Of a stretch of DNA of 64,000 nucleotides, positions 10,786 through 49,870 are shown piece after piece. A model generated the notes under the pieces. The model saw only the letters and a program-made list of their open reading frames with translations. It was not told the DNA's origin and made no database searches. Position 1 is the first letter of the stretch. Every line of letters starts with the position of its first letter. The stretch spans positions 201,903 through 265,902 of the forward strand of contig JAYONY010000001.1 of NCBI GenBank assembly GCA_038121585.1, in the 5' to 3' direction. The stretch comes from an archaeon. Lineage in GTDB: Archaea; Nanobdellota; Nanobdellia; Pacearchaeales; GW2011-AR1. The position numbers and the translations under genes are program-made.

Positions 10786-11496
10786 ATGAATAAAAAAGAA
10801 TTTACAAAAAGAGTGATTGAATCCCAAAAAGAGCTTACAATAATTACCAAAAGTAAAAAAGAAATTATTGTGAAGGCAAAACGCGGACCTTCAAAGCCCA
10901 CAAAAATCCCTTTAGAAATGAATAACGAACTCGCATTCTTCATTGCAGCAATAATTGGAGATGGCCACTTAAAGAAATCAAAGTATCAAACAGTTTTCGA
11001 GGTACAAGATAAAAAACTTGTTTTGAGAATGCAAGAAATTTGTAAGAAAAATTTCAACAGAATTTTTTCAATTAATGAACGAATAAATAAGGAAAAGAAA
11101 TATTTTGTTTTATACATCGATAGCAAGGCAATTCAAAATTATCTTAATTATGCATTAGAAATTCCAACTGGAAAGAAAAGCCATCTAGTAAAAGTACCTA
11201 ATATAGTTCAGAAGGGTTCAAAATCAATCAAGATATCATTTCTACAAGGAATTTTTGCCACAGAAGGAGGAAATCGAAGGAGAGGATATGGGGTTTCAAC
11301 AGCAAGCAAACAATTGTGGAACGATTTAGTAAAACTATTAGAAGATTTGAAGATCACTGTTAAGACAGATATTTGGACGCACAAAAAGTATAAAAGGGAA
11401 TATTATGGATTAGTATTTAGAAAGGAGTTCCTTTCTAAACTAAGCGGGGATACCGAAGCGGTCAAACGGGATAGGTTTAGGACCTATTGTGCTTAG
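10786..11496 (+). CDS. Free-standing double-motif LAGLIDADG homing endonuclease-like protein
   Basis: 236 aa. Motifs LAFFIAAIIGDGHL and ISFLQGIFATEGG. The last 53 nt, including the stop TAG, lie inside tRNA-Leu. Confidence 0.75.
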   Translation: MNKKEFTKRVIESQKELTIITKSKKEIIVKAKRGPSKPTKIPLEMNNELAFFIAAIIGDGHLKKSKYQTVFEVQDKKLVLRMQEICKKNFNRIFSINERINKEKKYFVLYIDSKAIQNYLNYALEIPTGKKSHLVKVPNIVQKGSKSIKISFLQGIFATEGGNRRRGYGVSTASKQLWNDLVKLLEDLKITVKTDIWTHKKYKREYYGLVFRKEFLSKLSGDTEAVKRDRFRTYCA

Positions 11497-11528
11497 TGCC
11501 TACCTAGGTTCGAATCCTAGTCCCCGCA
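11444..11528 (+). tRNA. tRNA-Leu (anticodon TAG)
   Basis: Hand-folded. Acceptor GCGGGGA/TCCCCGC. Anticodon arm ATAGG-TTTAGGA-CCTAT. Long variable arm. T arm CTAGG-TTCGAAT-CCTAG. Discriminator A. Confidence 0.85.
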
Positions 11529-11745: not shown

Positions 11746-13719
11746 CTAAATCTGGCCGTTAATATCTGTTTTGACGAGATACACCTCTCCCCCGCAAGTA
11801 GTCGTACATTCAACTGCAGTACCCACACCAACGTATTTTCCAGCATCAACAAACCCACCCATAAAAATAGAGTCGTATACTGAACCAGAAGTTGGATGAT
11901 ACTCTTCAACCCATTCAAGTGCTCGTGTTGCACCATCAATTTTCATAATGATTGCTCGTTCAGGAGATGTTGCTTCAGAAAAACCAAATAGAATGAAGTC
12001 CTCACCATCATAATCAAATTCAAGCCCTATATACTCTTCAGGTAGCGAATACGTTTCTGACCACAGAAAATTTCCACTTGCATCCCAGGCAATCAATTCC
12101 AAACCATCAGGGGATTCATCATATCCAAGCACTACAACATCACCATTTACTCCAGGGAGCTGCAGTATATCAAGCGCGAGGAAATCATCTGAATTGTATT
12201 GTACTGACGGTTGTGCAACCCCTGATGCAGCATTGATTCGAATCCAAGCAGGATAATATGCAGACGTGCCTACATCAGAAGTGACACCTGTAACAAGAAT
12301 ATCTCCATTCGAAGCCTCTCGAAGAGAAATAGTGAGATCGTCCTCGCCAGGAGTAATATCATACTCATTTTCCCAATCTATTTGTGGCTGATTAGTTACA
12401 GGATCTACACTTACTTTTTCAACAAAGAAATTTTCATTTGTTACACTACTCATAAAGCCAGTTACTACAATATCACCATTGCTTAAGAGTATAAGATCAT
12501 GAATAGTTTCAAATCCAATAGTGCTACCAACTTGTTGCTCCCATTCAATAATCTGCCCTGTTGAATCAAATTTCAAAATAAGCAATGCATCAGGCGTTTG
12601 AGATTGATCAATTACGGTTGCAACATACCCTCCATCAGACAATTGTGCAACTCCGCCAGAAAAATATCCGACAATAATAGACCCAAATGATACAGCACTT
12701 GAAGGAACAGATTCCCACTCAAACACTCCCGCTCCTGAAAACTTAACAAGCCTAAAGAGCTGTTGTGAACCACGAGTTAATACAACATAGCCCCCGTCAG
12801 CAGTACTAGCAACCGCAAGTCCAAAATCATCTGCAATTGAACCATACGTTGTTTCAAATGTCCCACCAATACATCCTTCATCAAATAACCCATCAGCATC
12901 ATCATCTAGCGAGTTACACATTTCATCCACTCCAGGACTTATTTCAGCAGTTGAGGTAAAGTCAGAATTGTATGTTGGTGCAATCGTAAGTGGTGGCTGT
13001 CCTGAAATAGGGAATAAGTGGAGAAGCAGCGTTATTGCATCTGCAATATTGACAGTGTTATCATTGTTTGTATCTCCTGCGTCAACACATTCTGCTGCAT
13101 ATGCATCAAATGGCGGGACAAAGAGAGTATTGAGGATAAAGATTGCGTCTCCGATATTTCTCGTACCGCTAAGATCTACATCTCCTCGAATAAAGGTTGC
13201 TGCAGGTCCAGTACATACGCTCGCGAGCGTTCCTAACCCTCCGGGCCCGAGTTGAATGCCAGTGTATTCTGTAGGTACTTCATCAATAAGCTGGTTTCGG
13301 CGAATAAGCGAGGATTCTAAGTCTTGCATGAGCTCTAGGAGTGCAACGCCATCGTACACGTCTGTTGTGCCGTCTTGGTTCACGTCTCGTTCATATGCTG
13401 GCAAGTCTGAGATAGTGAGTGAAGCATAGGTTGTATCAACTGCTTGTAGTAAGTATACTGCGTCAGCAACGGTTAACTCACCGTTTCCATCAACATCCCC
13501 TAACACACCCGTTGTCTCACCGCTTATTTTCGGTTCTTCTTTCGTCGTTTCAGGCGTTAATTGCGTTCTTGAATCCTCTTTTGTTGCAGTCGTGCGTTCC
13601 GGCGCGAGTGCCGTGTCAGTGCCAACATTCGTTACTGTTACAACATACCCAATTGCAAGCCCCACGACGGTAATAGCTGCGATTACAACTACGATACCAC
13701 TCATCCCTCTTGTTTCCAT
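11746..13719 (-). CDS. Secreted protein with two dockerin-like modules and beta-propeller-like repeats
   Basis: 657 aa. N-terminus METRGMSGIVVVIAAITVVGLAIG. EF-hand/dockerin repeats DVDGNGELTVADAVYLL, DVNQDGTTDVYDGVALL, GDVDLSGTRNIGDAIFIL, GDTNNDNTVNIADAITLL. Recurring (S/A)DGGYV / SNGDI(V/L)VTG repeats. Confidence 0.7.
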   Translation of the reverse strand: METRGMSGIVVVIAAITVVGLAIGYVVTVTNVGTDTALAPERTTATKEDSRTQLTPETTKEEPKISGETTGVLGDVDGNGELTVADAVYLLQAVDTTYASLTISDLPAYERDVNQDGTTDVYDGVALLELMQDLESSLIRRNQLIDEVPTEYTGIQLGPGGLGTLASVCTGPAATFIRGDVDLSGTRNIGDAIFILNTLFVPPFDAYAAECVDAGDTNNDNTVNIADAITLLLHLFPISGQPPLTIAPTYNSDFTSTAEISPGVDEMCNSLDDDADGLFDEGCIGGTFETTYGSIADDFGLAVASTADGGYVVLTRGSQQLFRLVKFSGAGVFEWESVPSSAVSFGSIIVGYFSGGVAQLSDGGYVATVIDQSQTPDALLILKFDSTGQIIEWEQQVGSTIGFETIHDLILLSNGDIVVTGFMSSVTNENFFVEKVSVDPVTNQPQIDWENEYDITPGEDDLTISLREASNGDILVTGVTSDVGTSAYYPAWIRINAASGVAQPSVQYNSDDFLALDILQLPGVNGDVVVLGYDESPDGLELIAWDASGNFLWSETYSLPEEYIGLEFDYDGEDFILFGFSEATSPERAIIMKIDGATRALEWVEEYHPTSGSVYDSIFMGGFVDAGKYVGVGTAVECTTTCGGEVYLVKTDINGQI

Positions 13720-13751
13720 TGACTGACTATATCAAAGTTACTTTATATTAG

Positions 13752-14051
13752 TTACCGTGATGCTATTACCTGTAATGCCGCTACATCTAAAGAATCAACT
13801 ACGCAATCACCGTTTACGTCTGCTTCGCGATAATTAATGATTGCGCGTTCTCGTGCTAAGTATTGCGTTAGAAGTGTTGCGTCATCTAGCGTTACTTCCC
13901 CGTCTGAATTAATATCTCCATCGCCTTCTGAACAATCGGGAGATAACGCAATTCGTTCTAATCGTGTGGATGTAACATACGTGAATCCCAAAACGAGCAC
14001 TATCCCCAAAATTATAATTGCGATTTTATAGCTAAGATGGAGTTGCTTCAT
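13752..14051 (-). CDS. Small membrane-anchored dockerin-module protein
   Basis: 99 aa. TM IAIIILGIVLVLGF followed by one dockerin pair: GDINSDGEVTLDDATLLTQYL and DVNGDCVVDSLDVAALQ. Confidence 0.65.
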   Translation of the reverse strand: MKQLHLSYKIAIIILGIVLVLGFTYVTSTRLERIALSPDCSEGDGDINSDGEVTLDDATLLTQYLARERAIINYREADVNGDCVVDSLDVAALQVIASR

Positions 14052-14088
14052 GATACTAAGGGTACGACGAGGTTTTTAACAATTGTGA

Positions 14089-17000
14089 CTAATCAGCTTG
14101 TGTCAATTCCCGAGTGTCTGCATTAAAGCGATAGTTCTCTGCAAAGAAATATATGAACCCGTCTTCTTCTGGATGTATAAAATTACTAGGAAATATTTCC
14201 CAATTGGCCTCTTCTCGAATTATTGCCATAGTACCATCATCGCTCCAGAACTTCCAAAAGCCAAGTTCGTACCAGCTAAAGTCTTTTTCAATAGTGACTT
14301 CGTTGGGCCCTTGCTCGATATAATACCCCGTGTATTCCCCATCCTCAAAAATAGCAAGACTAGTACTTACTTCAATCCCATTACCAGTTATACCGTCTGC
14401 ATTTCCTTCTGAAGGTGCATTGTCTGATGAATCTTCTGACGTACTGCTTGACTCAGACGTTACCGCTACCGCTCCAAGGGATTTTGCGTGGAATCGGTCT
14501 GTTATAACTGCGTACACATCACCGATAAGGAGGTTGCGTGCTGCTACATGTTCTTGTAAGATAACCCCTCCAAGCCTGAGCTGTATGGTGTCGAGGATCA
14601 CTTCATAATCGGCGAGTGAAAATGTTTCGGGAGTGCGTATAGCATACAAGTCTGAGCGGAGTTCATCGATTTGTCCGTACACAATGTTTGGATCTACTGC
14701 TGCGGCTCGCTTATCAAGTTCTGATCGCTGTATTGCCTGGAGTTCGCTGAGTGTTTGGTTTTTGAGCCCTTCAGTTATTTTTTGGTTTGAACTCAGCGCG
14801 TCATCAACACTACGCTTGTCAAGCCAGCAGGTTACGGTATCATCACCACAATACCCTACATCAACATAACGCGTTGGGTCTGTTGCACTACCCGGATTTA
14901 CGTTTGAACAGATACGCACTATTCCTTGTTCGAAGACTTGCGGATTCACAAGTTCTTCTACTGCTTGTTGCGGATTAAGCGTGAGCGGTACATTAGTTGG
15001 TTGTAAGGTTGGCCCTGAGATACATTCTTGTTCTGACGTAATATCTGCATTCGTGAGTTCTTCAGCTACGAATGCATCACGCAGTTGCTCGATTGCAAAA
15101 CTAGTAGTTACTTGTTCGAACCCACATTCTTCGACCCCATTTATACTCACGCATAATTGCTGGTAACCTGATGGTAGGGTAAGGTCTCTGCTTTCAGTTG
15201 CGAATTCTCCGCGTGGAATAAATCCTGATGCCACACTTGCCGTTGGGTTAATACCAAACGTTCCTCCTTGTGGCGGATCTTTCAAGTACACTTGATAGTT
15301 TACCCCTTGATCATCTCCAGCAAAGATGTGATAGAATACTTTGTAGCGTGATGTTGGAGGAGGTATTGCATCTGAAAACGGTGAACTACTAAAGTAGGCA
15401 TGGAATTGATGCGGACTGTCTGGCTCTATGAGTGCTTGGAAGTCTGCTCCGATAGGGAAACTTCCGGAGATAAACCCTTGGCAGAGCGGTGAGCCTGCCT
15501 CTTCTATTGAGCGAACATTATAGGCTGAGATTGCATTGACGGCATATTCTTGCGTGAAGAAATCAACTGAGTTTTCAACATTTTGAATTACTGCACTGCC
15601 AGTAGCATATTCTCCGCCACCTCGTGCACCGCTAAATCCTGAAAAGAGCCGTGGCACTACGATTTCTGCAAGTGATATTGCTGGTTCCCAAAAGAGCTTA
15701 CACGTATTTACAGAAGTGATTTCATCACAAATACCTGTGAGTTGTCCAGTATCAATACTTTCTTGTAAACACGCTCGGTGTGACTCAAGGATTGAAGTGT
15801 ATCCCTGAATTCCTGCGTGAATACCGCTTAAACATACGGGGACGTACACTCCTTCGTTAATATTTGGCAAGCATAAGAGTGCTCCTCCAACAATCCCTGT
15901 TCGTACGACGTCTGCTACTTGATAATTACCTCCAAAGTCACATCGTGATGGCGGGCAGATGACAGGATCACATGCGTTGAAGAGGAGTTGGCACTCGCCT
16001 GGACTCATAAATTCCTGACATGCTGTTTTACTCACAGCATTTGCTGGTGTTCCACGCCTGAGTTGTTCATCAAAAATTGAGATGAATTCGTTACCGTACT
16101 GTTGTGCTGCTTCGATAAGTGCTGATTTTGCATCATGAATGATTTGTGATGATTTTGTCGCACTTAAGCCAAAAACTTGCCCATTATCTGAAATACCTAC
16201 ATCAACTCGTTGACAAGGGTCTTCATCACCGATAAGCCCGTTTGGCCCCACGTTACAAATCTTAAATGATCGAGGCTCTCCTGCTTCTGTATAACTCGCA
16301 ATATTACTTCCTACCCCGATAATAGGTTCGACTTTTACATAATACCCTCGTTGAAAGTCGAAAGGTACAAGTGCAGGTAACCCTTCATACGGTGCTGACT
16401 CAAAATATTTCACTTCTCGGCTACTTGCTTTTATAGGGTACTGGTACGTGTCGGAGGGAACATCCTGAAATCCAGAAATACCAAAATCATTAATGAATTC
16501 CTGTACGTTTTGTGATTGACTGCCAGTAGGTGCAAAACTTTCTGTTAGTACAATATCTCCGTTTTCTGCCCGTTCATAATAATAGATTTCTTGCGCTTGA
16601 AGCACTCCGTCTGCTCGTGTTCCGAGTACTGCAAAACTTTCTGGCACGCTACCATCTCCGAGTGCTCTCCCGGATACGAAGATGATACCATCACTGCTAC
16701 CGCTGTACGGTGCATTAGTTCCTGAATAGACGATAGTGTCTCCGTTTGCGATTTGCCCACTTGACCCAATAGCATATACTTTACCGATTGCTGGCATTGC
16801 ATTACGAGCTGTTGCCCCGATAGATGCAACTTGGAGTGGTCCAATGCCTTCTGAAGCCCCTCGTGCTTGTTCGAGCTCTTCAAATATTGATTGTCGTTCT
16901 TCTACTTTTGTTTGTACTTCTGAGAATAAGGCTTGTGATCGTGCAGTGTAGGTGCTCCCTTGCCCTTGCATACACAGCTCCATGTCCATTGCGCGCAGAT

Positions 17001-19419
17001 CAGCATAACTAAAGGCTGATAAGTCCAAATTTCCAAGGTTATTGATAAACTCATTACCTCCAGCACCTCCATACGTGTTTATGAGTACGGTTCGATAGGC
17101 TGCTTTCGCATCTTCCACATTTACTCGAGTGTTTAGAAATTCATTAGTGGTGATTTCCCCGCTTGCTTCGACTGAGCTTATTCGATCATTAACTGCTTCA
17201 ATACATCCTTGCCGTGCGTTGACTTCATTTTCTATAGCGCCAGAGTTTGCATTCAAACAAGAAGTTACGGTGTTGTATTCTCCTTGATTAACGAGTTCTT
17301 GACATTGTTGACTCCATCCGTCAGTTCCTTGCATGGTTTGTTGTCGAGCAAGTGCTTCTCCACTGAGCCCTGCTAGCAAGTTTTTCAAAGTGAGAACACC
17401 CATAGTTGCAAAACAAGCTGCTTTGTATCCTGTTACAATGTTACCAAGATTTTCTTCAACGCTTTGCCATTGGTCGAGTGTTTCGTCTAAGTTAGCGATT
17501 CGTTCTGCTGCTCGTGCAGGGTTGAGTTGAATGTCTCGTTGTTCAATACCTATACCTACTGAAAATTCAACTTCTGTGCTGAGACTGCCTGATGAAGTTT
17601 CAATATGGAGTTTTGCGATTTCACTGAAATCAACGTCTCGTAAATGAAGTGCTGAGCCACAGAGTGTTGGAGGATTTGCCTGATTCGCAGTGAGTGTTCG
17701 TTCAGTTTTCGTCCCGTCAGCACACGTTGTTCGAACACTCACACGTGTTTCAGATACTATACGAGTAACCTCAAGGAGCCCATTAGTTGTTTGCTCACCG
17801 TCATCTTCTGCTACTTCTACGCGTAGTGCCCCCCAATCAAAAACTCCTTTCGACCGCTCTTCAGGTACGCTAATACTTGTTAATTGGAGTATCTGATACT
17901 CATTATCTAGAAAGACACTTTGAGCTGCATCTGCCAGATTTATCTTATTGAGCCGTGCTATTTCGAGTAAATAATGAGCGGTATCTGGATGAGTTGGGTA
18001 AAGCTCTGCATGAAGTTCCATGAGTTCTACTTGCGTGCTTTGTTTTGCGAGTATTTGTGCTAAGAGTATCGCATTCGCAAGCCCTTGTTGTCCGAACGGA
18101 TCATCTTCTGACGTTCTGCGCTCATTAGTGTAGTCTTCTGCCAAGTCAGTGTATTGTTGTTTGGTTAGTGAAAAGTAGGTCTCTACATTTTCTTCTTTAT
18201 TACTATAATCTGCTTCAAAGAGAGATTGTTGATTATTCACATATATTTCATTGAGAAGCACAGGCAGTTGTAAAGTTCCCTTTTCAATTACTGCCACATT
18301 ACCCGTTATGCCAAGGATTTCCCACCCGTCATCTTGCCCATTATCATCTGTCACGAGCGTGACAGTATCTCCGATTTCAAGTGGTGTAACTCCGAGTGTG
18401 AGTTCAAGTTGCTTAGCACCACATTGTACTTCTGCAGTCCCACCCCGAGTTCCTAGAGCGTTTATAGTTGTGACGCGACACTTATTATTCAAAAACCTGC
18501 TTCCTTCTGTGAGTTGGTATACGTCATCGTTAACACGAATTGTGGCGAGTTTATCTGCTCGTTGCAATCCATCGTATACTACACTCATCCTTCCTCTACA
18601 ATACTGTCCTGGAACATAAATAGGGGTTGAGAGTTGTCCTCGATTTACCGATCGTGTTGCGACAGGATTATTATTCTGATCAAAGATTGTCACGCTTGCC
18701 TGATTTGCATCTGCACTGTTTAGCTTGAGCGCGTAATCCCCTTGCCAAAAACTACTTTGGTATTTGTTGTTAAAGAAGTCATCTTCGTCCTGTACGCTAA
18801 GTAAAAATTCTGCCCGTCCAACACCAAAAGTGTTTGCTGCCTGATAGTCTATCTGGCCAGTGAGTGATAATTCTAAAACTTCAGGAGAGAGTGCTTCATT
18901 AGGTTGCCGCTTGAGTACGACTACTACATATCCGATATTGTCAATGTACGGGCTTCCGGTGAGTTGTGTTGTTGAGCGAATTGCTGCTCGTGCTGGTTGA
19001 AACCCAATACTCCGCACTTCTGGCGGGAGGTCTCCTGTGAATCGAATATTTTTTACTTGTTGAATGTCTATGAGTGGGTTAAGTTTGAGTCCGTCTACCT
19101 TACAAAATACTGGCACGTCTTGTTCTGCTAAGAGTGAGCTTGAAACTACTGCCGGTTCACACCCGAGCGGAGAAAGTTGTAAGAGAAGGTCTGTTCGTGC
19201 TTCACATTGGTCGGCATCACCAAGCGTTGGCCAATAGACTGATGCATCAGCACCATATACTGATGAGGCACTTGCAAATGACCCGGTACTCACGATGCGT
19301 GCGGTACCTGTCCGACTACCTGTTCCGTACCCAAAAGATGTTTGTGTTGTTGAGACTTGTGCATACACACTTCCTAGGAGCATGCACGCTAAGAGTGCTA
19401 CTACAAATAATCGTTTCAT
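14089..19419 (-). CDS. Giant secreted protein (1776 aa), unknown family
   Basis: Uninterrupted 5.3 kb ORF. Sec-type signal MKRLFVVALLACMLLGSVYAQ. ATG overlaps the upstream stop (ATGA at 19416-19419). Cys-rich segment around residues 1130-1260 (CQEFMSPGECQLLFNACDPVICPPSRCDF..). Confidence 0.8.
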   Translation of the reverse strand: MKRLFVVALLACMLLGSVYAQVSTTQTSFGYGTGSRTGTARIVSTGSFASASSVYGADASVYWPTLGDADQCEARTDLLLQLSPLGCEPAVVSSSLLAEQDVPVFCKVDGLKLNPLIDIQQVKNIRFTGDLPPEVRSIGFQPARAAIRSTTQLTGSPYIDNIGYVVVVLKRQPNEALSPEVLELSLTGQIDYQAANTFGVGRAEFLLSVQDEDDFFNNKYQSSFWQGDYALKLNSADANQASVTIFDQNNNPVATRSVNRGQLSTPIYVPGQYCRGRMSVVYDGLQRADKLATIRVNDDVYQLTEGSRFLNNKCRVTTINALGTRGGTAEVQCGAKQLELTLGVTPLEIGDTVTLVTDDNGQDDGWEILGITGNVAVIEKGTLQLPVLLNEIYVNNQQSLFEADYSNKEENVETYFSLTKQQYTDLAEDYTNERRTSEDDPFGQQGLANAILLAQILAKQSTQVELMELHAELYPTHPDTAHYLLEIARLNKINLADAAQSVFLDNEYQILQLTSISVPEERSKGVFDWGALRVEVAEDDGEQTTNGLLEVTRIVSETRVSVRTTCADGTKTERTLTANQANPPTLCGSALHLRDVDFSEIAKLHIETSSGSLSTEVEFSVGIGIEQRDIQLNPARAAERIANLDETLDQWQSVEENLGNIVTGYKAACFATMGVLTLKNLLAGLSGEALARQQTMQGTDGWSQQCQELVNQGEYNTVTSCLNANSGAIENEVNARQGCIEAVNDRISSVEASGEITTNEFLNTRVNVEDAKAAYRTVLINTYGGAGGNEFINNLGNLDLSAFSYADLRAMDMELCMQGQGSTYTARSQALFSEVQTKVEERQSIFEELEQARGASEGIGPLQVASIGATARNAMPAIGKVYAIGSSGQIANGDTIVYSGTNAPYSGSSDGIIFVSGRALGDGSVPESFAVLGTRADGVLQAQEIYYYERAENGDIVLTESFAPTGSQSQNVQEFINDFGISGFQDVPSDTYQYPIKASSREVKYFESAPYEGLPALVPFDFQRGYYVKVEPIIGVGSNIASYTEAGEPRSFKICNVGPNGLIGDEDPCQRVDVGISDNGQVFGLSATKSSQIIHDAKSALIEAAQQYGNEFISIFDEQLRRGTPANAVSKTACQEFMSPGECQLLFNACDPVICPPSRCDFGGNYQVADVVRTGIVGGALLCLPNINEGVYVPVCLSGIHAGIQGYTSILESHRACLQESIDTGQLTGICDEITSVNTCKLFWEPAISLAEIVVPRLFSGFSGARGGGEYATGSAVIQNVENSVDFFTQEYAVNAISAYNVRSIEEAGSPLCQGFISGSFPIGADFQALIEPDSPHQFHAYFSSSPFSDAIPPPTSRYKVFYHIFAGDDQGVNYQVYLKDPPQGGTFGINPTASVASGFIPRGEFATESRDLTLPSGYQQLCVSINGVEECGFEQVTTSFAIEQLRDAFVAEELTNADITSEQECISGPTLQPTNVPLTLNPQQAVEELVNPQVFEQGIVRICSNVNPGSATDPTRYVDVGYCGDDTVTCWLDKRSVDDALSSNQKITEGLKNQTLSELQAIQRSELDKRAAAVDPNIVYGQIDELRSDLYAIRTPETFSLADYEVILDTIQLRLGGVILQEHVAARNLLIGDVYAVITDRFHAKSLGAVAVTSESSSTSEDSSDNAPSEGNADGITGNGIEVSTSLAIFEDGEYTGYYIEQGPNEVTIEKDFSWYELGFWKFWSDDGTMAIIREEANWEIFPSNFIHPEEDGFIYFFAENYRFNADTRELTQAD

Positions 19420-21287
19420 GAGAAACTCACCTCCACAACTCCCCCTTCAAGTGCAGCATAGTTTTGTTGTAATTGTTCTAAACTGTTTGGCGTTGGGAGA
19501 CCTTCAACATCTAAAACAACAGTTCCTTGTGCAAGATCAGTTGCTAGTATAAAGGTTATTGTACTACCACCGCCTTTAAGCGCGTATTCAACGTCAGTTG
19601 CTGGAATTTCTACATTGAAACATTCTTCTTCTGTTGCCCCAAAGACTCCTGCTATCCCTCCTGCTGCGACATCAGTACAGTAGCGATGTTGTGTTGCTGG
19701 AATAGTTATTCCTGACGCTGCATACACAAATACTGAAACATCATATTCCCCTTCATGAAGCGTTACACTTTCTAGTTCAGGAAGTGATGCGGTAACAACG
19801 TTTCTACCATCATCAAAACTAATCACTGCCGAACCGCTTAAGGACTGCCCATCAACAAGGACGGATACATCAACAGGATATTCTTTGCGTAAAATAATAT
19901 CTACTTCTCCGGGTTCGTTAGATGAGTATTGGAGGGCGGTTTCCGCAAATCCTTCTGCTGATACGACGAGTTCACCATTAATACATTGTGGAATTCCTCC
20001 GGAGTATACTGCTTCGCTACCCACTAGCTCCGTTGACCCGAGCGTGCATCGACTATCAAAGCAGGAGTAGGTTACAAGTGCACCCTCCACGGGAGCGAGT
20101 TGCTGATCATACACTCGAGCAGTTAGTTCCCCATTATAAAACTGGCACGCATCTACTTCTGGATTATCGAGTAAGCTTTGAATTTCAGCCTCTCGAGGAA
20201 CATTATTGTCAAGTATAACTGCGAGAGGGAACTGGAAGATTTCAGTCCCGCGAGTTACTTGGACCATAACAGGGAATCGTACATCCCACACAAAGTGATA
20301 CGGTACATAACAAAAGCCCATGATACCCATGCCTGATTGTGTCCCTACAGGGTCTGCTATCATTATTTCATTCGTTGCAGGCGTTACTTCAGTAATGCTT
20401 GGCCACCTTGGAGAGTAGAGCACTTGCACACTCGCATCTGTTAGCGTGTACCCAAGATCCACTATGAAATAATCGTCTTCTACATCATCAAGAATATACG
20501 CATTACCAGCTATTTTTATTGCTCCAAAGTTTGTTGCGAGTGCTTCATGCAGTTTAGTCACTTCATCTCGTGTTTGCCATATTTCAGGACTACACGATAC
20601 GGAAACACCATCAACAGGTACATGATTGCGCAGAGTATCAACAGCATACGATTCTAAAAATGCAGTTTCAAGTTCTTCTTCATGAATATCCCGTGCTATT
20701 TCATAGAGTGCACCTAGAGAACTTTCAACTGTTACTTCATGCCGTGTTTTGCGAGCGCTTCGCCCTTCTCGTTGAGTTACGAGTGCTCCGTTAACGACTA
20801 TATCAACTGCTTCATCATGTATTGCTGCACTGACTGATGGGCTAGCAGGTAATGAAATATAGAAGTCATTAAAGTAAAACGGGGTAAACTCACATTCTTG
20901 GATTCGTTGCGCTACGTACTCTTCTAAATGTTGTTCCATTTCGCTTTTTGTAGGCGCTTGTTCTACAAAGAAATTATTTCCTGTAACATATGACCAATAC
21001 GGTACTGGCGTCCCCATAAAGTTGAGGTGCGAGGAGAACGGGGCAAATTCACTACCTGGTACGTAGTCGCCCAATTCTATGCGTCCTCCTTGCACTCCCA
21101 TCACCTCTATTCCCTCTTCTGTTGCTGTTTGTATACAGCCTAAATATGATGTGTAAATTGGTGCAAATTCAGGGTCTATTGTTGTCTCAAAGAGCGATTC
21201 ACGAAACGCGTAGACGACTAGAATACTTCCTACAATTACGAGTGCGAGGATAATAAATCCTGTAGCAAGCCCTCGTTTAGCTACCAC
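19416..21287 (-). CDS. Membrane-anchored/secreted 623 aa protein, unknown family
   Basis: GTG start at 21287. N-terminus (M)VAKRGLATGFIILALVIVGSILVVYAF is class III signal-like. Translationally coupled to the giant gene. Confidence 0.75.
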   Translation of the reverse strand: MVAKRGLATGFIILALVIVGSILVVYAFRESLFETTIDPEFAPIYTSYLGCIQTATEEGIEVMGVQGGRIELGDYVPGSEFAPFSSHLNFMGTPVPYWSYVTGNNFFVEQAPTKSEMEQHLEEYVAQRIQECEFTPFYFNDFYISLPASPSVSAAIHDEAVDIVVNGALVTQREGRSARKTRHEVTVESSLGALYEIARDIHEEELETAFLESYAVDTLRNHVPVDGVSVSCSPEIWQTRDEVTKLHEALATNFGAIKIAGNAYILDDVEDDYFIVDLGYTLTDASVQVLYSPRWPSITEVTPATNEIMIADPVGTQSGMGIMGFCYVPYHFVWDVRFPVMVQVTRGTEIFQFPLAVILDNNVPREAEIQSLLDNPEVDACQFYNGELTARVYDQQLAPVEGALVTYSCFDSRCTLGSTELVGSEAVYSGGIPQCINGELVVSAEGFAETALQYSSNEPGEVDIILRKEYPVDVSVLVDGQSLSGSAVISFDDGRNVVTASLPELESVTLHEGEYDVSVFVYAASGITIPATQHRYCTDVAAGGIAGVFGATEEECFNVEIPATDVEYALKGGGSTITFILATDLAQGTVVLDVEGLPTPNSLEQLQQNYAALEGGVVEVSFS

Positions 21288-21417
21288 GTTTCTTTGACCC
21301 CTTTTTGATTTTTTCTTGGATTAATTTGATAAGTTCCGTATTGATATCCTTGTCAATTACTTGTTTAAACTGTTCCCACATGGCTTCGTCTTCGATTAAT
21401 AGTAAGTACTTCTTCAT
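21277..21417 (-). CDS. Small ribbon-helix-helix-like protein (46 aa), first gene of the giant-protein operon
   Basis: Not in the track (<60 aa). MKKYLLLIEDEAMWEQFKQVIDKDINTELIKLIQEKIKKGSKKRGS has a beta-alpha-alpha pattern. The stop overlaps the GTG start of the next gene by 11 nt. Confidence 0.5.
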   Translation of the reverse strand: MKKYLLLIEDEAMWEQFKQVIDKDINTELIKLIQEKIKKGSKKRGS

Positions 21418-21467
21418 GAATGCCCCAATTCCTTGCATCTCTTACGCATGTTCCCTATTTAAAGTTT

Positions 21468-21522
21468 CTTAGTAATTTAGTAAATTAATAACATACTTAC
21501 TAAGTAACTTACTAAGTAAATT
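21468..21522. promoter_or_regulatory. Operator-like repeats in a divergent intergenic region
   Basis: CTTAGTAA (21468-21475) is the inverted copy of TTACTAAG, which sits inside the tandem 12-mers ACTTACTAAGTA x2 (21495-21518). AGTAAATT occurs twice. Confidence 0.45.
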
Positions 21523-21564
21523 GATGCACAGGTTTAAAAACTAAAAATATGCAAACAAAATCCG

Positions 21565-21969
21565 ATGACCAATCAAAAACCATTAGCAGAAATGATTCAC
21601 TTACCTGTGCTGAGCACTGCATCACTAGGGGCTAAAATCTATGAACTATCGCAAGAAGTGAGAACACTAGAGAAAAAGCTTGATTTAGAAGAAACGAACC
21701 CGCAAGGAATAATGCGTGGAATCTTAAGTGAAATAACACGTGACAGACACCGATTTGGAAAAGGAAAATTACCACATACTGCAATGAGTGGAAGATATGA
21801 CTTTTCTGCTAGAGTACTTGCACAATACGGTACAGCATTAGACACGACACCCTCATTTTTAGAAGAAGAACGTGCAAAACCGCTACAATACGGCATTCAA
21901 GGAGAATCCTATTATACCAATACCGCATTTAAACGATTACAAAATCATCGAGATACGTTTTCCACATAA
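21565..21969 (+). CDS. Hypothetical protein
   Basis: 134 aa. CAGGTTTAAAAAC promoter motif about 25-30 nt upstream. No family recognised. Confidence 0.45.
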   Translation: MTNQKPLAEMIHLPVLSTASLGAKIYELSQEVRTLEKKLDLEETNPQGIMRGILSEITRDRHRFGKGKLPHTAMSGRYDFSARVLAQYGTALDTTPSFLEEERAKPLQYGIQGESYYTNTAFKRLQNHRDTFST

Positions 21970-21998
21970 GTAGTTTTCTAGAAACGTTCGATTCGAAG

Positions 21999-22011
21999 TG
22001 GCCCCGCGCAG
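21999..22011 (-). repeat. Distal copy of the tRNA-Val 3' end (CTGCGCGGGGCCA)
   Basis: Exact 13-mer tggccccgcgcag on the plus strand. Degenerate T-loop-like extension. Flanked by hairpins AAACATTC/GAATGTTT and TGCTC/GAGCA. Confidence 0.8.
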
Positions 22012-22069
22012 TTGAAAACATTCACTAACTAGAATGTTTGATGCTCGAGGGAGCACGAATGTCAATGAG

Positions 22070-22082
22070 TGGCCCCGCGCAG
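22070..22082 (-). repeat. Proximal copy of the tRNA-Val 3' end (CTGCGCGGGGCCA)
   Basis: Exact 13-mer located 70 nt from the genuine tRNA 3' end. Adjacent hairpin AACTTTA/TAAAGTT. Confidence 0.8.
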
Positions 22083-22139
22083 TCGAGAACTTTATGTTAA
22101 ATTAAAGTTAGAGACCAGCTGGGACAGAGGCATAGCCGA

Positions 22140-22210
22140 TGGCCCCGCGCAGAATCGAACTGCGGACTCCTCCACGTCAAGGAGATGGTTTACCACTAGC
22201 CTACGGGGCC
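22140..22210 (-). tRNA. tRNA-Val (anticodon GAC)
   Basis: Hand-folded on the minus strand. Acceptor GGCCCCG/CGGGGCC. Anticodon loop TTGACGT. T arm CGCAG-TTCGATT-CTGCG. One mismatch in the D stem. Confidence 0.8.
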
Positions 22211-22385
22211 TTTCTGCTTGCCGAAGATTGTAAGCCCACAGCACAAGCGAGGAGCTTACAGGCAAGAGCAAGTCAGAAATGACTTTTTCTTCTTACCCAT
22301 CAGCACGAGTGAGTCAAAGATAGCAGTGTACTATCAACACTCAACCCATCAATACTCGCTATAAAAAGCTTTACTCCTAAAACTA

Positions 22386-22400
22386 CTATCTTTTTAAAGC
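22386..22400 (+). promoter_or_regulatory. Archaeal-type BRE/TATA promoter of the sigma-70-like gene
   Basis: CTATCTTTTTAAAGC is centred about 29 nt upstream of ATG 22423. Same motif class as the housekeeping genes in this window. Confidence 0.5.
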
Positions 22401-22422
22401 CCTAAACGCTCAAATTATAAAC

Positions 22423-23295
22423 ATGCGACAACGAAACGAGGACATGGACCCCCTGTACAAGAAAGAACTCGAACAATTTACTTCTTATTTATCATTTGAG
22501 GAAGAATCTAAACGCGGTAAAATACTTCGTGATGAAACCCTCCCCGTCAACGTTCGTAAAAAGGCTGGTGCTGAACTTGTAGAAGCCAATTTACGCTTGG
22601 TACCTTTTATTGCGAGACGATATGAAAATCGAGGAGTTGCAAAAGACGATTTAATTGGGGAAGGAAATGAAGGACTAGTATATGCAACTACGAAATACGA
22701 TGGGAGGACAAAATTTGGTACGTACGCTGGCCGTTGGGTTAAACAACGCATAGGCCGTGCAATCATTGAAGGGACTGGCCCAATCCATATTCCTGAAACA
22801 ACCCTCCTCCTAGCTAAAAAATTTACCGAAGAAGATATCAAAAAACCAATTGAAGTGCTTGCAAAAGAGTATGATGTAAAACCGGGGAGAATAGCATGTG
22901 CTCTTGATGCATACGCCGTTTTACAAAGAAAAACTCATTCACTAACACGCCAAGATACTGATGGATCCAAAGGCTACAACGCTGATTTTGAAATCCCTTC
23001 TAGAGAAATTGATACGCTTGATGAATCAATTGAGAGTAAGCGATTACTCAAAAAATTGCCTAAGCGAGAAAGAAAAGTGATTGAAATGTATTATGGATTT
23101 ACACCTATGCCCCCTGTTCAAAGAAGACCTCACAGAAGAAACTGTAAAACAGGTCAATTACTCGAAGAACATTCTGTTCGGCGTGAAAAAGCAACCCTTG
23201 AAAATATTGGAAAAAAAGTAGGAATTAGCAGAGAATGGGTCCGTAGAATCACTATTGATGTACCACCAACCCTTCTAGAGTCGCTTAACGAATAA
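22423..23295 (+). CDS. Bacterial-type sigma-70 family factor homologue
   Basis: 290 aa. Region 2: [59 protein letters not shown]..IHIP (compare RpoD [58 protein letters not shown]..IRIP). Region 4: [30 protein letters not shown]. Confidence 0.85.
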   Translation: [290 protein letters not shown]

Positions 23296-23342
23296 TGTCC
23301 GAACGCTTTTAAACTCCTAATTCGTATAATACGTAGCAAAAA

Positions 23343-23636
23343 ATGGTGGTACAAAAAGGGCTTGGCTATATTTTAGCAATTATTGGATTAGCACTGGTTG
23401 TGGTATGGGCGTTTGAGGAAATTCGCACCCCTCTCAATGAATTTATTCCTGAAAGTATTCCTGAGATGGCCTATTTAATTGGAGGAGTTGTGCTTGTAGG
23501 CCTCAGTGTGTTTCTAATGCGTGGTACGAGCGGCAAAACGAAGCACGTTCATGAAGTCCCAATCTATCAAGGCCAGCATATTGTAGGCTATAGACGCCAC
23601 GGTAAAGCAAGTCATCGCAAACAAAAGCACCGATAA
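23343..23636 (+). CDS. Small two-TM membrane protein with a basic C-terminal tail
   Basis: 97 aa. TM segments GYILAIIGLALVVVWAF and YLIGGVVLVGLSVFLM. Tail ends HGKASHRKQKHR. Confidence 0.5.
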   Translation: MVVQKGLGYILAIIGLALVVVWAFEEIRTPLNEFIPESIPEMAYLIGGVVLVGLSVFLMRGTSGKTKHVHEVPIYQGQHIVGYRRHGKASHRKQKHR

Positions 23637-23725
23637 AGCAAGAAAAAACGCTTTTTGACCTCTTTCGCACCTAACGTAAAGCTTTTAAACACTCATTCTC
23701 ACGCTTTAGAACTACGAACGTCGAC

Positions 23726-23756
23726 CCACGTTTGACTTTCACTGGCAAAGTCGTGG
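23726..23756 (+). promoter_or_regulatory. Hairpin in the 5' leader of the L44e-S3Ae operon
   Basis: CCAC-GTTT-GACTTT-CACTGGC-AAAGTC-GTGG. It lies between the promoter-like AGCTTTTAAACAC (about 23680) and ATG 23798. Confidence 0.3.
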
Positions 23757-23797
23757 TTAGTTCTGATTCATACGAATCTATCGCCAGCCGGAAACTA

Positions 23798-24127
23798 ATG
23801 AAACTCCCAGAAAAAACTAACAGATACTGCCCGTATTGTCGGGAAAAAACTGAACAGAAGTTAAGTGTAGCGAAGCAAAAATCTCGTTCATCAGCTCACC
23901 CAATGAGTCGATGGTCTACTTCACGAGTTATTGCTCGAGGCCTTAAGTCAGGTACAGGTTCCAAAGGTCGTTTTTCTAAACCACCAATTAAGAAGTGGAA
24001 ACGAAAGTCTAAATCTACAAAGCGAATGACAATCATGTACACCTGTAAAGTATGTAATAAAGCCAAAGGGATTAAAAAGGGTATTCGCACATCACGATTA
24101 ACTATAGGAGATAAAGTAGCGAAGTAA
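23798..24127 (+). CDS. rpl44e: 50S ribosomal protein L44e
   Basis: MKLPEKTNRYCPYCREKTEQK...GKGRFSKPP...YTCKVCNKA has the zinc-ribbon pattern of L44e. The track ORF starts at an upstream TTG (23732). Confidence 0.8.
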   Translation: MKLPEKTNRYCPYCREKTEQKLSVAKQKSRSSAHPMSRWSTSRVIARGLKSGTGSKGRFSKPPIKKWKRKSKSTKRMTIMYTCKVCNKAKGIKKGIRTSRLTIGDKVAK

Positions 24128-24128
24128 C

Positions 24129-24764
24129 ATGGCAAGCAAACAAATGAAACATAAGCCAAAGCCGAAGAAAAAGCGAGTTGGTAAAAAGAAGTTTTTTGAT
24201 GCAACAATCCCCATGACAACTGCGAAAGTTAGTTTGTACGGATATGCAGCAGAAGATTTTGAAGGCCGATTTGTTAAGCTTGACTTAAGCAAGAGCATGC
24301 GTGGTAAGAACGTAGAACTACGTGCTAAACTAGCCCTTAATGAGAAGAAATTAGTTGGCCAGCTACATGGTTTACGACTAATTCCAACCTATATTAAGCG
24401 AGTTATGCGCCGAGGAACTGATTATGTTGAAGATTCATTTGAAGTTATTGGTAAAGAACACGTATTTCGTATCAAACCATTCCTAATTACCCGTAAGCGA
24501 GTTTCACGAGCAGTACGTAACGCCCTACGAACAACTGCGAAGAAACATCTTGAAAGTAAAGTTGTAATTATGAAAACTGAAGAATTATTCTCAAATATCA
24601 TGACTAACAAGTTCCAAAAAGACTTGAGTATGAAACTCAAAAAGATTTATCCATTAGCATTATGTGAAATTCGTGTACTAGAAGTACTTCGTCCTGCTCC
24701 TGAAAAGAAGGAAAAAAAGGCTGAGACCAAAGAGTCAAAGACAGACGCTGAAACGAAAGAGTAA
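24129..24764 (+). CDS. rps3ae: 30S ribosomal protein S3Ae (S1e)
   Basis: 211 aa. KKKFFDATIPM..GRFVKLDLS.. and C-terminal KKIYPLALCEIRVLEVL are typical of S3Ae. Confidence 0.8.
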   Translation: MASKQMKHKPKPKKKRVGKKKFFDATIPMTTAKVSLYGYAAEDFEGRFVKLDLSKSMRGKNVELRAKLALNEKKLVGQLHGLRLIPTYIKRVMRRGTDYVEDSFEVIGKEHVFRIKPFLITRKRVSRAVRNALRTTAKKHLESKVVIMKTEELFSNIMTNKFQKDLSMKLKKIYPLALCEIRVLEVLRPAPEKKEKKAETKESKTDAETKE

Positions 24765-24791
24765 CTGCGTTCACCATTCTTTTCATCCACT

Positions 24792-24863
24792 GCCTCCATA
24801 GCTCAGTGGCAGAGCATTAGTTTTGTAAACTAAGGGTCGGGGGTTCGAATCCCTCTGGGGGCT
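24792..24863 (+). tRNA. tRNA-Thr (anticodon TGT)
   Basis: Hand-folded. Acceptor GCCTCCA/TGGGGGC. D arm GCTC-AGTGGCA-GAGC. Anticodon arm TTAGT-TTTGTAA-ACTAA. T arm GGGGG-TTCGAAT-CCCTC. Confidence 0.9.
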
Positions 24864-24939
24864 CTCATCTTTATGATGCGGGAGCATCATAGAGAAACCA
24901 GAGGTACTAAAATTTCTAATTTTTCAACCTCTGGGGGCT
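24864..24939 (+). repeat. tRNA-sized trailer module 1, ending in a copy of the tRNA-Thr 3' end
   Basis: 76 nt. Hairpin ATGATGC-GGGA-GCATCAT. Stem CCAGAGGT/ACCTCTGG encloses hairpin AAAATT-TCT-AATTTT. Ends CCTCTGGGGGCT, identical to 24852-24863. Confidence 0.7.
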
Positions 24940-25013
24940 TGTTCTATAGTGTTGCGTAGGCAACACTCAGCAACCTGAGGTACACGACGTTAGTCGTTCA
25001 ACCTCTGGGAGCT
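24940..25013 (+). repeat. tRNA-sized trailer module 2, ending in a near-copy of the tRNA-Thr 3' end
   Basis: 74 nt. Hairpin AGTGTTGC-GTAG-GCAACACT. Stem CCTGAGGT/ACCTCTGG (one mismatch) encloses hairpin CGAC-GTTA-GTCG. Ends CCTCTGGGAGCT. Confidence 0.7.
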
Positions 25014-25014
25014 C

Positions 25015-25020
25015 TTTTTT
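25015..25020 (+). terminator. T6 run after the second trailer module
   Basis: TTTTTT immediately follows module 2. No comparable T-run follows the tRNA itself or module 1. Confidence 0.45.
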
Positions 25021-25092
25021 ATGATGCAAGAATAGCACGTGATAAAAATACTAAAAAGATGAATATATAAACAATCTTTAGCTTTTGAGTGT

Positions 25093-25992
25093 ATGGAAGG
25101 AGAAAGTGCTAAGTCCCCGACTGAACTCATGCATGATTCTGAACGTGAAGAGATAATACGTTTTTTGCAAGATAATATTGGATGGGTGAATTATTATGTC
25201 TTAGTGCTTATTGGAGAATTTGATAAGGTTCGTGCTAGAAAACCTACTCAGGGAGTTACAATTCAAGGTGAGCCTTTGAAAGTACGACGTAGGGATACGG
25301 GCGAGGAGGAAGTGTTTGGGTATATTGACCTAACCTCTTCTATGACACTTACCCCTGTTGCCCAGTCTGAATTTCCACAGTTTAAGAAGTGGAGCCTTTC
25401 TGAGAGTGAGGGCGAGGCATGGATGATTTTCAATTATGAAGTGTTTCCCCGAATTAGCATTCCTGACCAAACAATTCAATTAGTGAATCAATACAAGCAA
25501 TATGGCCTTTCGGGTGATGGGTGTTCTTGGATTGTCATTACTAAAACCCCGAATATGCAAAAACCGTTCAAAGATCATGACATTACCCTTATTGAATTTG
25601 AAACACTGCAAAAGGCTATTGCTGAAATGAAGAAAAAAACCGATGAAAACCTCAAAAAACAACGGGAAAAATCACAAAACACGTCTGAAACTCCAATAAA
25701 GAAACAAGGTTCTAAACATTCCCAGATAACTAATCCTGGAGGAAAAAAGGCAAGTAAGAAATTAGCTCAGGCAGTACAAAAAGTGACTAAGAAAAAAGCC
25801 TCTAAAAAAACAAGTGTGAAAAAACAGAAGAGCCCTGCAAGTAAAAAGATAGTGCAAAAAGGTACAAAAGAAAAAACACCTGCTAAGAAGACTACTCTCA
25901 AAAAGAAAAGTGAAATGGCAAAAGCAAAAAAGAAAGAAAACACTGCTGATTCGCTCAAAGCGTGGGCCCTAAAGCTAACAAGTAAAAAATAA
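25093..25992 (+). CDS. Hypothetical protein with a histone H1-like Lys-rich C-terminal tail
   Basis: 299 aa. Globular N-terminal 190 aa, then KKASKKLAQAVQKVTKKKASKKTSVKKQKSPASKK.. low-complexity tail. Confidence 0.55.
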   Translation: MEGESAKSPTELMHDSEREEIIRFLQDNIGWVNYYVLVLIGEFDKVRARKPTQGVTIQGEPLKVRRRDTGEEEVFGYIDLTSSMTLTPVAQSEFPQFKKWSLSESEGEAWMIFNYEVFPRISIPDQTIQLVNQYKQYGLSGDGCSWIVITKTPNMQKPFKDHDITLIEFETLQKAIAEMKKKTDENLKKQREKSQNTSETPIKKQGSKHSQITNPGGKKASKKLAQAVQKVTKKKASKKTSVKKQKSPASKKIVQKGTKEKTPAKKTTLKKKSEMAKAKKKENTADSLKAWALKLTSKK

Positions 25993-25996
25993 GGTT

Positions 25997-26263
25997 TTAA
26001 TTACTAAACAAATCGCCTATACCGTCAAAGAGGTTTTGTGCAGGATCAATTAATAATATTGCTGCGATTGCGATTGCTACAAAACCGAACAGTTTCTCAT
26101 TTATCTTGAGTAGCTTTAAACCGTTAATTATTACATACACGCCACCTGCAACGATGAGGAGTGTACTGATTATATTTTCAGGGCCAAGCCCCCCTACAAA
26201 TCTATCGATAAATATCATGCCAAGAATTGACATTATTATTCGCTCACCAATATTTAGTACCAT
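25997..26263 (-). CDS. Small membrane protein
   Basis: 88 aa with three hydrophobic helices. No family recognised. Confidence 0.45.
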   Translation of the reverse strand: MVLNIGERIIMSILGMIFIDRFVGGLGPENIISTLLIVAGGVYVIINGLKLLKINEKLFGFVAIAIAAILLIDPAQNLFDGIGDLFSN

Positions 26264-26339
26264 GCGTGCCTCTTTAGTATATTTAGATTACACGTACAGA
26301 GTATTTAAAGATTAAGTAAAAATAAAAAATAAGAGGCTA

Positions 26340-37700: not shown

Positions 37701-37717
37701 CTACCGCAACCTTTAAA
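37701..37717 (+). promoter_or_regulatory. Promoter with the exact motif CTACCGCAACCTTTAAA
   Basis: The same 17-mer occurs at 49853-49869. The 14-mer CCGCAACCTTTAAA also occurs at 38161. It lies about 28 nt upstream of ATG 37745. Confidence 0.55.
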
Positions 37718-38155: not shown

Positions 38156-38160
38156 GGTAA

Positions 38161-38174
38161 CCGCAACCTTTAAA
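38161..38174 (+). promoter_or_regulatory. Promoter CCGCAACCTTTAAA of rps15
   Basis: Exact 14-mer about 30 nt upstream of ATG 38204. Confidence 0.55.
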
Positions 38175-49790: not shown

Positions 49791-49870
49791 CTACCACAGC
49801 CTTTAAACCTAAAGTGAGACGATAATCGAACGAAGGTCTAAAGGTTGCAACACTACCGCAACCTTTAAAA
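49791..49870. promoter_or_regulatory. Three copies (two direct, one inverted) of the promoter motif in one intergenic region
   Basis: CTACCACAGCCTTTAAACC (49791-49809). Inverted TCTAAAGGTTGCAACAC (49838-49854). CTACCGCAACCTTTAAAAC (49853-49871). ATG of ef1b is at 49896. Confidence 0.55.

Follow-up and report, generated by a model that had tools for sequence, protein, structure and literature searches.

How a gene for a bacterial-type sigma factor comes to sit in the chromosome of an archaeon, and what its product might do there, is the question raised by a 64,000-nt stretch of DNA (the window; NCBI GenBank assembly GCA_038121585.1, contig JAYONY010000001.1, positions 201,903 to 265,902 of the forward strand). 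Archaea initiate transcription with TBP, TFB, and TFE, and a sigma factor has no known partner in them. Sigma-70-like genes were reportedly first noted in DPANN archaea by Rinke and colleagues in 2013. An original prediction, made from the letters of the window alone, described a complete bacterial-type sigma-70 homologue in the open reading frame (ORF) at 22423-23295. The analyses reported here showed that this ORF encodes a genuine, very divergent sigma-70-family protein that is resident in the archaeal chromosome.

The family membership was supported by matches at the levels of domain, family, and fold. The Pfam domain Sigma70_r2 (PF04542), which serves core binding and -10 recognition, was found at residues 52-113 with 44.9 bits against a cut-off of 24 (E=1e-11), and Sigma70_r4 (PF04545), the helix-turn-helix (HTH) domain for -35 recognition, scored 35.5 bits against a cut-off of 24.1 (E=7e-9), in a match broken into two stretches by a 25-residue insertion. 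The NCBIfam superfamily model TIGR02937 passed its cut-off as well (77.3 vs 42.9 bits, residues 50-276). A search of the PDB returned RpoS as the top match (E=4e-19), followed by SigA, HrdB, and RpoD. An AlphaFold2 model that was built from a 40-sequence input and had a mean predicted local distance difference test (pLDDT) score of 73.7 was aligned by Foldseek over approximately 300 columns to the sigma-S and SigA chains of holoenzyme structures (E ~1e-9). Taken together, these matches show that the sigma homology is real. No match to the Pfam models of region 3 (PF04539) or region 1.2 (PF00140) was obtained in the protein, even at E<=1. Hence, the profile check that had been suggested for regions 2, 3, and 4 succeeded for regions 2 and 4 but left region 3 undetected. 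Regions 1.2 and 3 were colinear in the NCBIfam and MAFFT alignments, helices were predicted in both, and the equivalents of H455 and E458 were present, while region 1.1 was absent.

The affinity of the protein to the known sigma groups was read from NCBIfam profile scores, which served as a proxy for a phylogeny against groups 1-4. RpoD_Cterm was the top specific model with 94.8 bits, where residues 50-228 were colinear with profile positions 3-193, and RpoS scored 92.1 bits in an alignment that started from residue 11. In contrast, the RpoH, SigB/F/G, and SigK models only scored from 54 to 59 bits. Going by these scores, the protein appeared most like group 1/2 (RpoD/RpoS). The equivalog cut-offs of these groups were missed widely, with 94.8 bits against 354 for RpoD_Cterm, 92.1 against 378.7 for RpoS, and 82.3 against 555 for PRK05658. 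The W433/W434 dyad and the acidic finger of region 3.2, two marks of group 1/2, were both found to be changed (W433R, and DDED to DGSK).

Within its family, the protein was found to be isolated. Its closest full-length relative among ~15 billion proteins was at most ~38% identical, and its nearest neighbours were bacterial. A word-indexed search of 5.8 billion clusters returned the protein itself and then matches at 29-33% identity, with nothing at 50-90%, and its 90% cluster had no other member. An exhaustive HMMER search of 1.84 billion representatives gave 39,461 sigma-family matches, where only the protein itself fell below 1e-30 and the genuine full-length matches had 80-97 bits at no more than ~38% identity. 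Over residues 41-290, the identity to 39 bacterial sigmas was a flat 29-34.5%, whereas these sigmas averaged 56% among themselves. The GTDB representative genomes returned only a Saccharibacteria sigma, at 29% identity. A donor lineage of the gene cannot be named from such comparisons. Apparently closer relatives (P0121-P0125, P0127, P0128, P0130, and P0132) were rejected, as they are bacterial sigmas in which a duplicated region 2 matches twice and inflates the scores. An archaeal sister clade was rejected likewise: among 10 good full-length matches, the sole organism name was that of a Mariprofundaceae bacterium, and the gene contexts read as bacterial. Specifically, P0003, P0004, P0008, P0126, and P0142 had ECF sigma and Ser/Thr kinase genes, or a PolA-type exonuclease gene, as neighbours.

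A residue audit was performed against the sequence of E. coli sigma-70, the numbering of which was checked internally. The two proteins shared an identity of 37% over 202 columns. Among the core-contact positions, six of nine were identical (N383, L386, D403, I405, E407, and N409) and three were altered (L402D, Q406G, and M413V). Identity was also found at seven of 13 positions of the -10 region (K426, F427, T429, Y430, W434, Q437, and R441), with two further conservative swaps (F419Y and R436K), the alterations W433R and T440G, and a deletion of Y425. Both of the extended -10 residues, H455 and E458, were retained, and none of those checked was altered. In regions 4.1 and 4.2, the residues R554, E555, T572, L573, E574, R584, E585, and R588 were retained, while R586W, Q589R, and the helix after region 4.2 were changed. 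The insertion between these two regions amounted to 25 residues in the pairwise alignment, in agreement with the predicted length of about 25, and it is basic and predicted to be disordered. The description of a complete factor spanning regions 1.2 to 4.2 was borne out for regions 2 and 4 and weakly so for regions 1.2 and 3, and the word complete was generous, given the absence of region 1.1, the position of regions 1.2 and 3 below Pfam detection, the W433R substitution, and the loss of the acidic region 3.2.

The substitutions were not spread evenly over the protein. In the 40-sequence alignment, 72% of the columns conserved in at least 90% of the bacterial sigmas were kept, compared to 29%, 23%, and 11% as conservation decreased from class to class. 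The residues preferentially kept included those that define the folds of the sigma-2 and sigma-4 domains, those in contact with the clamp coiled-coil of the core RNA polymerase, and those in contact with the -10 and -35 DNA. Such a preferential retention of conserved columns points to constraint, and the graded divergence argues for a folded protein on which selection still acts and which has moved away from canonical sigma behaviour, though a pattern drawn from one sequence is not proof.

The surroundings of the gene are archaeal, as had been predicted from the presence of TFB, L44e, and S3Ae. Pfam matches in the window included TFB (8381-9304), S8e, S15, L44e, S3Ae, Gins51, RadA, eIF2-alpha, SRP54, and FtsY, and further genes encoded an archaeal-type phosphoglycerate mutase, a RIO kinase, and a prepilin peptidase. 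The RadA protein was 82-90% identical to proteins of Candidatus Pacearchaeota, Nanoarchaeota, and Parvarchaeota metagenome-assembled genomes. RadA and the archaeal gene set thus place the host among the DPANN archaea of the Pace/Woesearchaeota type. Approximately 70 of the 82 candidate ORFs in the window were scanned, and none of these encoded a bacterial core polymerase subunit, an anti-sigma factor, or an integrase.

A bacterial-type gene whose nearest homologues stand in bacterial contexts could suggest an assembly or binning chimera, in which a bacterial fragment was joined to archaeal DNA. However, the identical protein and its neighbours were found on three contigs, one of 420,989 bp at NCBI and two from Logan assemblies of single runs (SRR26337539 and SRR26337541). 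The two Logan contigs match the window without a single difference, at 19423-26295 and 21966-24804, and each of them spans both junctions of the gene. As two independently assembled runs reproduced these junctions exactly, the gene is resident and not chimeric, in line with the original prediction. Conserved archaeal genes occurred within ~1 kb on each side, and no bacterial protein was more than ~38% identical, leaving no plausible contaminating donor. The codon usage of the sigma gene was host-like (z=+0.23, rank 33 of 55), its GC content of 0.402 and third-position GC content of 0.271 compared with window means of 0.420 and 0.332, the GC profile was flat across the locus, and the promoter was of the host type. 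A chimera is effectively refuted, short of read mapping, and we give it next to no credence.

The gene is preceded by a TATA-like box (Table 1) of the class YTTWAWA. Of 74 genes, 14 had a sequence of this class that began 26-40 nt ahead of the start codon, where 0.8 were expected (~17-fold), and the positional histogram showed a sharp peak at -35 to -26. Genes with such a box included those for TFB, SRP54, S15, NDK, and RadA. The earlier statement that the sigma gene carries the same box as the housekeeping genes holds for this motif class but not for the exact 10-mer CTTTTTAAAG, which is unique on the + strand of the window. The position of the box implies a leaderless or near-leaderless mRNA, and the TATA boxes that precede leaderless mRNAs in archaea look like that of the sigma gene (cf. 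PMC7289017). The gene thus has a host-type promoter, from which its expression is inferred. Separately, a 15-mer, CCGCAACCTTTAAAA, was observed at 37703-37717, 38160-38174, and 49855-49869, upstream of the genes at 37733, 38204 (S15), and 49896, and it probably represents a strong consensus of the TFB recognition element and TATA box in this organism.

The gene lies next to a tRNA-Val(GAC), and a tRNA-Val in the same orientation was present in the related loci L009, L011, L013, L014, L018, L025, L026, L040, and L042. The tRNA had been described as having att-like 3'-end repeats. Such repeats do exist, as the last 13 nt of the tRNA occurred three times (at 21999, 22070, and 22140, 70-71 nt apart) against 0.4 expected. 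The repeat units comprised the 3' segment only and matched no tRNA model. Placed directly after the tRNA and evenly spaced at tRNA length, they resemble att sites left behind by two earlier integrations, the elements of which have disappeared. The part of the description that did not carry over is the link to the gene: the repeats are located on the 3' side of the tRNA and the sigma gene on its 5' side, so that the position of the gene is not simply explained by them. A pair of att sites enclosing the sigma gene was considered and rejected, since no direct repeats flank the gene and the copied tRNA ends are found across the tRNA from it.

The related loci that were compared included 30 metagenome loci with S3Ae relatives (36-59% identity) and five loci from the closest relatives in the protein collection searched (60-71%), and a tblastn search found a sigma homologue in none of the 35. 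The order orf623(-) ... L44e, S3Ae ... Gins, aPGM was kept in nine loci, of which seven also had the tRNA-Val(GAC) in the same gap and orientation. In five of these loci, the next gene, 56-155 nt beyond the tRNA-Val, encoded a small membrane protein with a Zn ribbon, and L44e came after it. Syntenic homologues of orf623, with 34-52% identity, were found in L009, L011, L013, L014, L018, L025-L027, L037, and L040. The gap from orf623 to L44e was 900-1450 nt in the relatives, compared to 2510 nt in the window. The content of the slot differed among loci. For example, L040 carried a peptidase M16 gene, and L039, the closest relative with an L44e identity of 84%, carried a dehydrogenase-like gene. 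In L018 (4616-5211), the Zn-ribbon protein was accompanied by two ORFs that, on visual inspection of their translations, resembled AbrB/MazE and a PIN domain, which shows that the slot takes mobile-type cargo. This slot, bounded by tRNA-Val and L44e, is therefore a variable hotspot, in which this lineage carries the sigma gene as its own cargo, a lineage-specific single-gene insertion of ~1.1-1.5 kb.

The downstream neighbour of the sigma gene is orf97, a weak homologue of which was found upstream of L44e in L015, a locus without a sigma gene, and it may or may not have arrived together with the sigma gene. It was rejected as an anti-sigma factor of an ECF-type pair, as it has no Pfam domain, has its own promoter box, and has its weak homologue in the sigma-less L015.

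These features of the locus could also mean that a DPANN virus or an integrative element targeting tRNA-Val delivered the gene or left it behind, where the sigma serves or once served the element in the manner of phage-encoded sigmas. The gene adjoins a tRNA-Val with two additional att-like copies of its 3' end, it occupies a hotspot that in L018 holds a toxin-antitoxin-like pair, and it is an orphan, as is frequent for mobile cargo. The protein matched the PHROGs sigma family phrog_351 (E=1.5e-30), and a published report (PMC12647753) describes divergent rpoS-like genes carried by DPANN viruses and by one DPANN prophage. However, no integrase, capsid, terminase, or other PHROG match was found in the neighbours, and none in the Pfam-scanned ORFs of the window. 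The insertion is only ~1.1-1.5 kb in length, the att-like repeats are 3' of the tRNA while the gene is 5', without direct repeats around it, and the codon usage of the gene is that of the host. No relative was found in IMG/VR, and tblastn against phages gave matches of 30-44% identity with partial coverage, which did not surpass those to bacteria and amounted to general sigma similarity. We consider this account rather unlikely, although it concerns the route of acquisition and is hence compatible with the explanation favoured below, for which a mobile route of entry is plausible by analogy.

Our best overall explanation, which we hold with a little more belief than doubt, is that of an ameliorated, horizontally acquired sigma that has been kept under constraint and may act as an accessory transcription regulator. 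The gene would have been acquired from a bacterium, either directly or via a mobile element such as a virus, early enough for full amelioration, and its evolution since then would have been fast but constrained. The protein would still use the DNA-binding surfaces of its sigma-2 and sigma-4 domains. In bacteria, sigma-2 binds a beta-prime element that is homologous to the clamp coiled-coil of the archaeal polymerase, and the protein may dock on the latter. It would modulate initiation by TBP, TFB, and TFE at a few genes without replacing that machinery. For the function taken by itself, accessory regulation of transcription in the archaeal host appears the likeliest candidate, and it is proposed tentatively, at somewhat less than even confidence.

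Several observations weigh against this explanation. Canonical sigma activity may have been lost, as suggested by W433R, Q406G, the deletion of Y425, T440G, R586W, Q589R, the loss of the acidic finger, and the diverged helix after region 4.2. While bacterial members kept on average 97%, and at minimum 76%, of the strongly conserved columns, the 72% kept here is just beyond the bacterial range. The graded conservation is also partly inherent in any alignment of a remote homologue, and a single sequence allows no dN/dS estimate. Bacterial-type -35/-10 sites were not enriched near the locus (36 observed vs 40.1 +/- 5.8), which gives no support for the use of canonical sigma-70 promoters, although a sigma this divergent may recognise other sites. 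The absence of the gene from all relatives shows that it is dispensable for the lineage. Moreover, we know of no case in which any sigma was shown to interact with an archaeal RNA polymerase.

Some of the same observations would fit a functionless relic, namely an old transferred gene that drifts neutrally and whose ORF is intact by chance. The gene is missing from all relatives and is therefore dispensable, the protein forms a long isolated branch, several canonical residues are lost with regions 1.2 and 3 below detection, and neither an anti-sigma factor nor a bacterial core polymerase was present as a partner among the scanned ORFs of the window. In contrast, the ORF of 290 codons is intact in a genome of high coding density and has its own correctly placed promoter box, the sigma-2 domain is predicted at pLDDT 86-96, and three identical copies came from separate assemblies. 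Its substitutions also avoid the conserved sigma columns (72% kept vs 11-29%). We therefore regard neutral drift as unlikely.

Two further functions were weighed. In a more ambitious form, the regulator would serve the archaeal RNA polymerase as a functional factor for initiation or specificity, where sigma-2 would bind the Rpo1N clamp coiled-coil at the TFE/Spt5 site, and sigma-4 together with the basic insertion would bind upstream DNA. This possibility appears quite improbable. If true, a DPANN lineage would exist with hybrid bacterial/archaeal promoter selection, and the sigma-to-clamp interface would either predate the split of bacteria and archaea or be capable of being re-established across it. 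Alternatively, the protein could be an effector that is delivered to a bacterial partner or prey and acts on the bacterial RNA polymerase to redirect transcription. Most residues that touch the core polymerase and the promoter DNA in bacteria are retained, and few hosts of DPANN archaea of the Pace/Woesearchaeota type are known. Against such an effector, the N-terminus has no signal peptide, no secretion genes adjoin the gene, and no feature of the window links it to cell-cell transfer. The known DPANN hosts are archaea (PMC8204110). An effector role is accordingly judged very doubtful.

Table 1. Sigma-70-family gene, its predicted domains, and the neighbouring features in the window (aa, amino acids; TM, transmembrane segment)
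Feature	Coordinates	Strand	Evidence
Sigma-70-family coding sequence, 290 aa, isoelectric point 9.4	22423..23295	+	ORF; Pfam r2/r4; NCBIfam TIGR02937; PDB RpoS; AlphaFold2 and Foldseek
Region 1.2-like N-terminal helices (aa 8-40)	22444..22542	+	Colinear with region 1.2 (NCBIfam RpoS/RpoD, MAFFT); model helices 10-17, 25-36; no PF00140 match
Sigma-2 domain, regions 2.1-2.4 (aa 41-116)	22543..22770	+	Pfam Sigma70_r2; pLDDT 86-96; residue equivalents
Divergent sigma-3-like helical region (aa 117-171)	22771..22935	+	Colinear with RpoD_Cterm; H455/E458; helices 125-132, 143-149, 154-176, pLDDT 69-91; no Pfam r3 match
Region 3.2-like linker (aa 172-198), predicted disordered	22936..23016	+	pLDDT <50 at 172-198; acidic DDED to DGSK
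Sigma-4 domain, regions 4.1 and 4.2 (aa 199-290)	23017..23292	+	Pfam Sigma70_r4 (two stretches); residue equivalents; model helices 193-223, 259-289
Basic, predicted-disordered lineage-specific segment between regions 4.1 and 4.2 (aa 227-257)	23101..23193	+	25-aa pairwise gap; pLDDT <50 at 233-254; 8 K+R vs 3 D+E
TATA-like box CTTTTTAAAG, centred ~28 nt before ATG	22390..22399	+	Sequence; YTTWAWA positional enrichment
tRNA-Val(GAC), conserved anchor of the variable slot	22140..22210	-	ARAGORN; Rfam 57.7 bits; relatives
Pair of att-like repeats (21999-22020, 22070-22091) of the terminal ~21-25 nt of tRNA-Val, on the tRNA 3' side	21999..22091	-	Exact 13-mers
orf97, small two-TM protein with its own TATA-like box at 23302-23314 (box repeat D3)	23343..23636	+	ORF; no Pfam/PHROG match
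L44e and S3Ae genes, conserved right flank	23798..24764	+	Pfam; syntenic in all 35 related loci
orf623, conserved left flank, DPANN-specific, no Pfam match	19416..21287	-	Syntenic homologues

Other features of the window and the related loci were recorded alongside. At 43891-45089 on the - strand, two ORFs that overlap by 13 nt matched 2OG-FeII_Oxy_4 (44466-45089) and Ofd1_CTDD (43891-44478). They look like one gene of the Ofd1/Tpa1 type (a eukaryote-like ribosomal prolyl hydroxylase) split by a frameshift or fission. A free-standing ORF with a LAGLIDADG domain (10786-11496) overlaps the start of a tRNA-Leu (11444-11528), and its GC content of 0.32 is the minimum of the window. Very large ORFs of 657, 1776, and 623 aa, without a Pfam or PHROG match, occupy 11746-21287 on the - strand, and in L040/L041 a 618-aa homologue of orf623 is followed by a gene of ~1760 aa. 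These large ORFs may encode DPANN-specific surface or attachment proteins. At 56250-62603 on the - strand, nine packed, co-directional, and partly overlapping ORFs were found, where the seven scanned had no Pfam match (58498-58923 and 62310-62603 were left out). With a type IV prepilin peptidase gene (51306-52145) a few kb away, this block may be an operon for a pilus- or archaellum-like or other surface structure. In L011 (6905-6992) and L018 (6705-6790), ARAGORN reported a tRNA of 86-88 nt with a 4-base 'tgta' anticodon where other loci have a tRNA-Thr(TGT), and this is probably an intron-containing tRNA-Thr.

With respect to the known systems, the protein resembles the bacterial RpoD, RpoS, and SigA in its colinear regions 2.1-2.4, 3.0, 4.1, and 4.2, and it keeps most of their core-binding, -10, extended -10, and -35 residues. 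It differs from them in the lack of region 1.1, the W433R substitution, the lost acidic region 3.2, the 25-aa insertion in sigma-4, and its basic isoelectric point of 9.4. Its setting differs as well, as the host uses TBP and TFB, and the window gives no sign of a bacterial core polymerase.

The presence of sigma-70 genes in DPANN archaea is already known, as the original prediction had stated. Castelle et al. 2021 (PMC8204110) described them as family fam00359 in many DPANN genomes, with a prevalence in Woesearchaeota. They ruled out mis-binning, saw no anti-sigma factors, and offered no mechanism. The gene reported here shares with that family its placement among archaeal genes, the presence of TFB, and the lack of an anti-sigma factor. 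It differs, in a comparison made by description only, in having no relative above ~38% identity and in its absence from the 35 related loci. It may thus represent an independent acquisition or an extreme outlier relative to fam00359. What is new here is the extreme orphan status, the mapped insertion hotspot, and the residue audit against sigma-70. No novel type of system comes to light at this locus, and related lineages do without the gene. The retention of a sigma gene under constraint in an archaeon is nevertheless a standing puzzle, restated in 2021 without a mechanism, and our literature search found no functional study of DPANN sigma-70 genes. A well-defined protein of 290 aa is a good test case for distinguishing among binding to the archaeal RNA polymerase, to the bacterial RNA polymerase, or to DNA only.

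The rpoS-like genes of DPANN viruses and of a DPANN prophage (PMC12647753) offer a second comparison. They are likewise highly divergent, RpoS-like, and associated with DPANN archaea, and the gene reported here lies beside a tRNA with att-like repeats. In contrast to them, it has no viral or integrase genes nearby, has no relative in IMG/VR, and is set in a conserved chromosomal neighbourhood.

Finally, the archaeal TFB encoded in the same window has a role in initiation equivalent to that of the bacterial sigma, and it contains HTH-bearing repeats. The second cyclin repeat of this TFB (aa 261-291) was observed to give a weak Pfam Sigma70_r4 match (E=8.7e-6, 25.6 bits vs a cut-off of 24.1). 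Proposals of a distant homology between sigma and TFB rest on this HTH resemblance (cf. PMC8131849). TFB nonetheless belongs to a different family, built of TFIIB repeats and a Zn ribbon, and it is present in all archaea, whereas the sigma described here is an orphan accessory gene.

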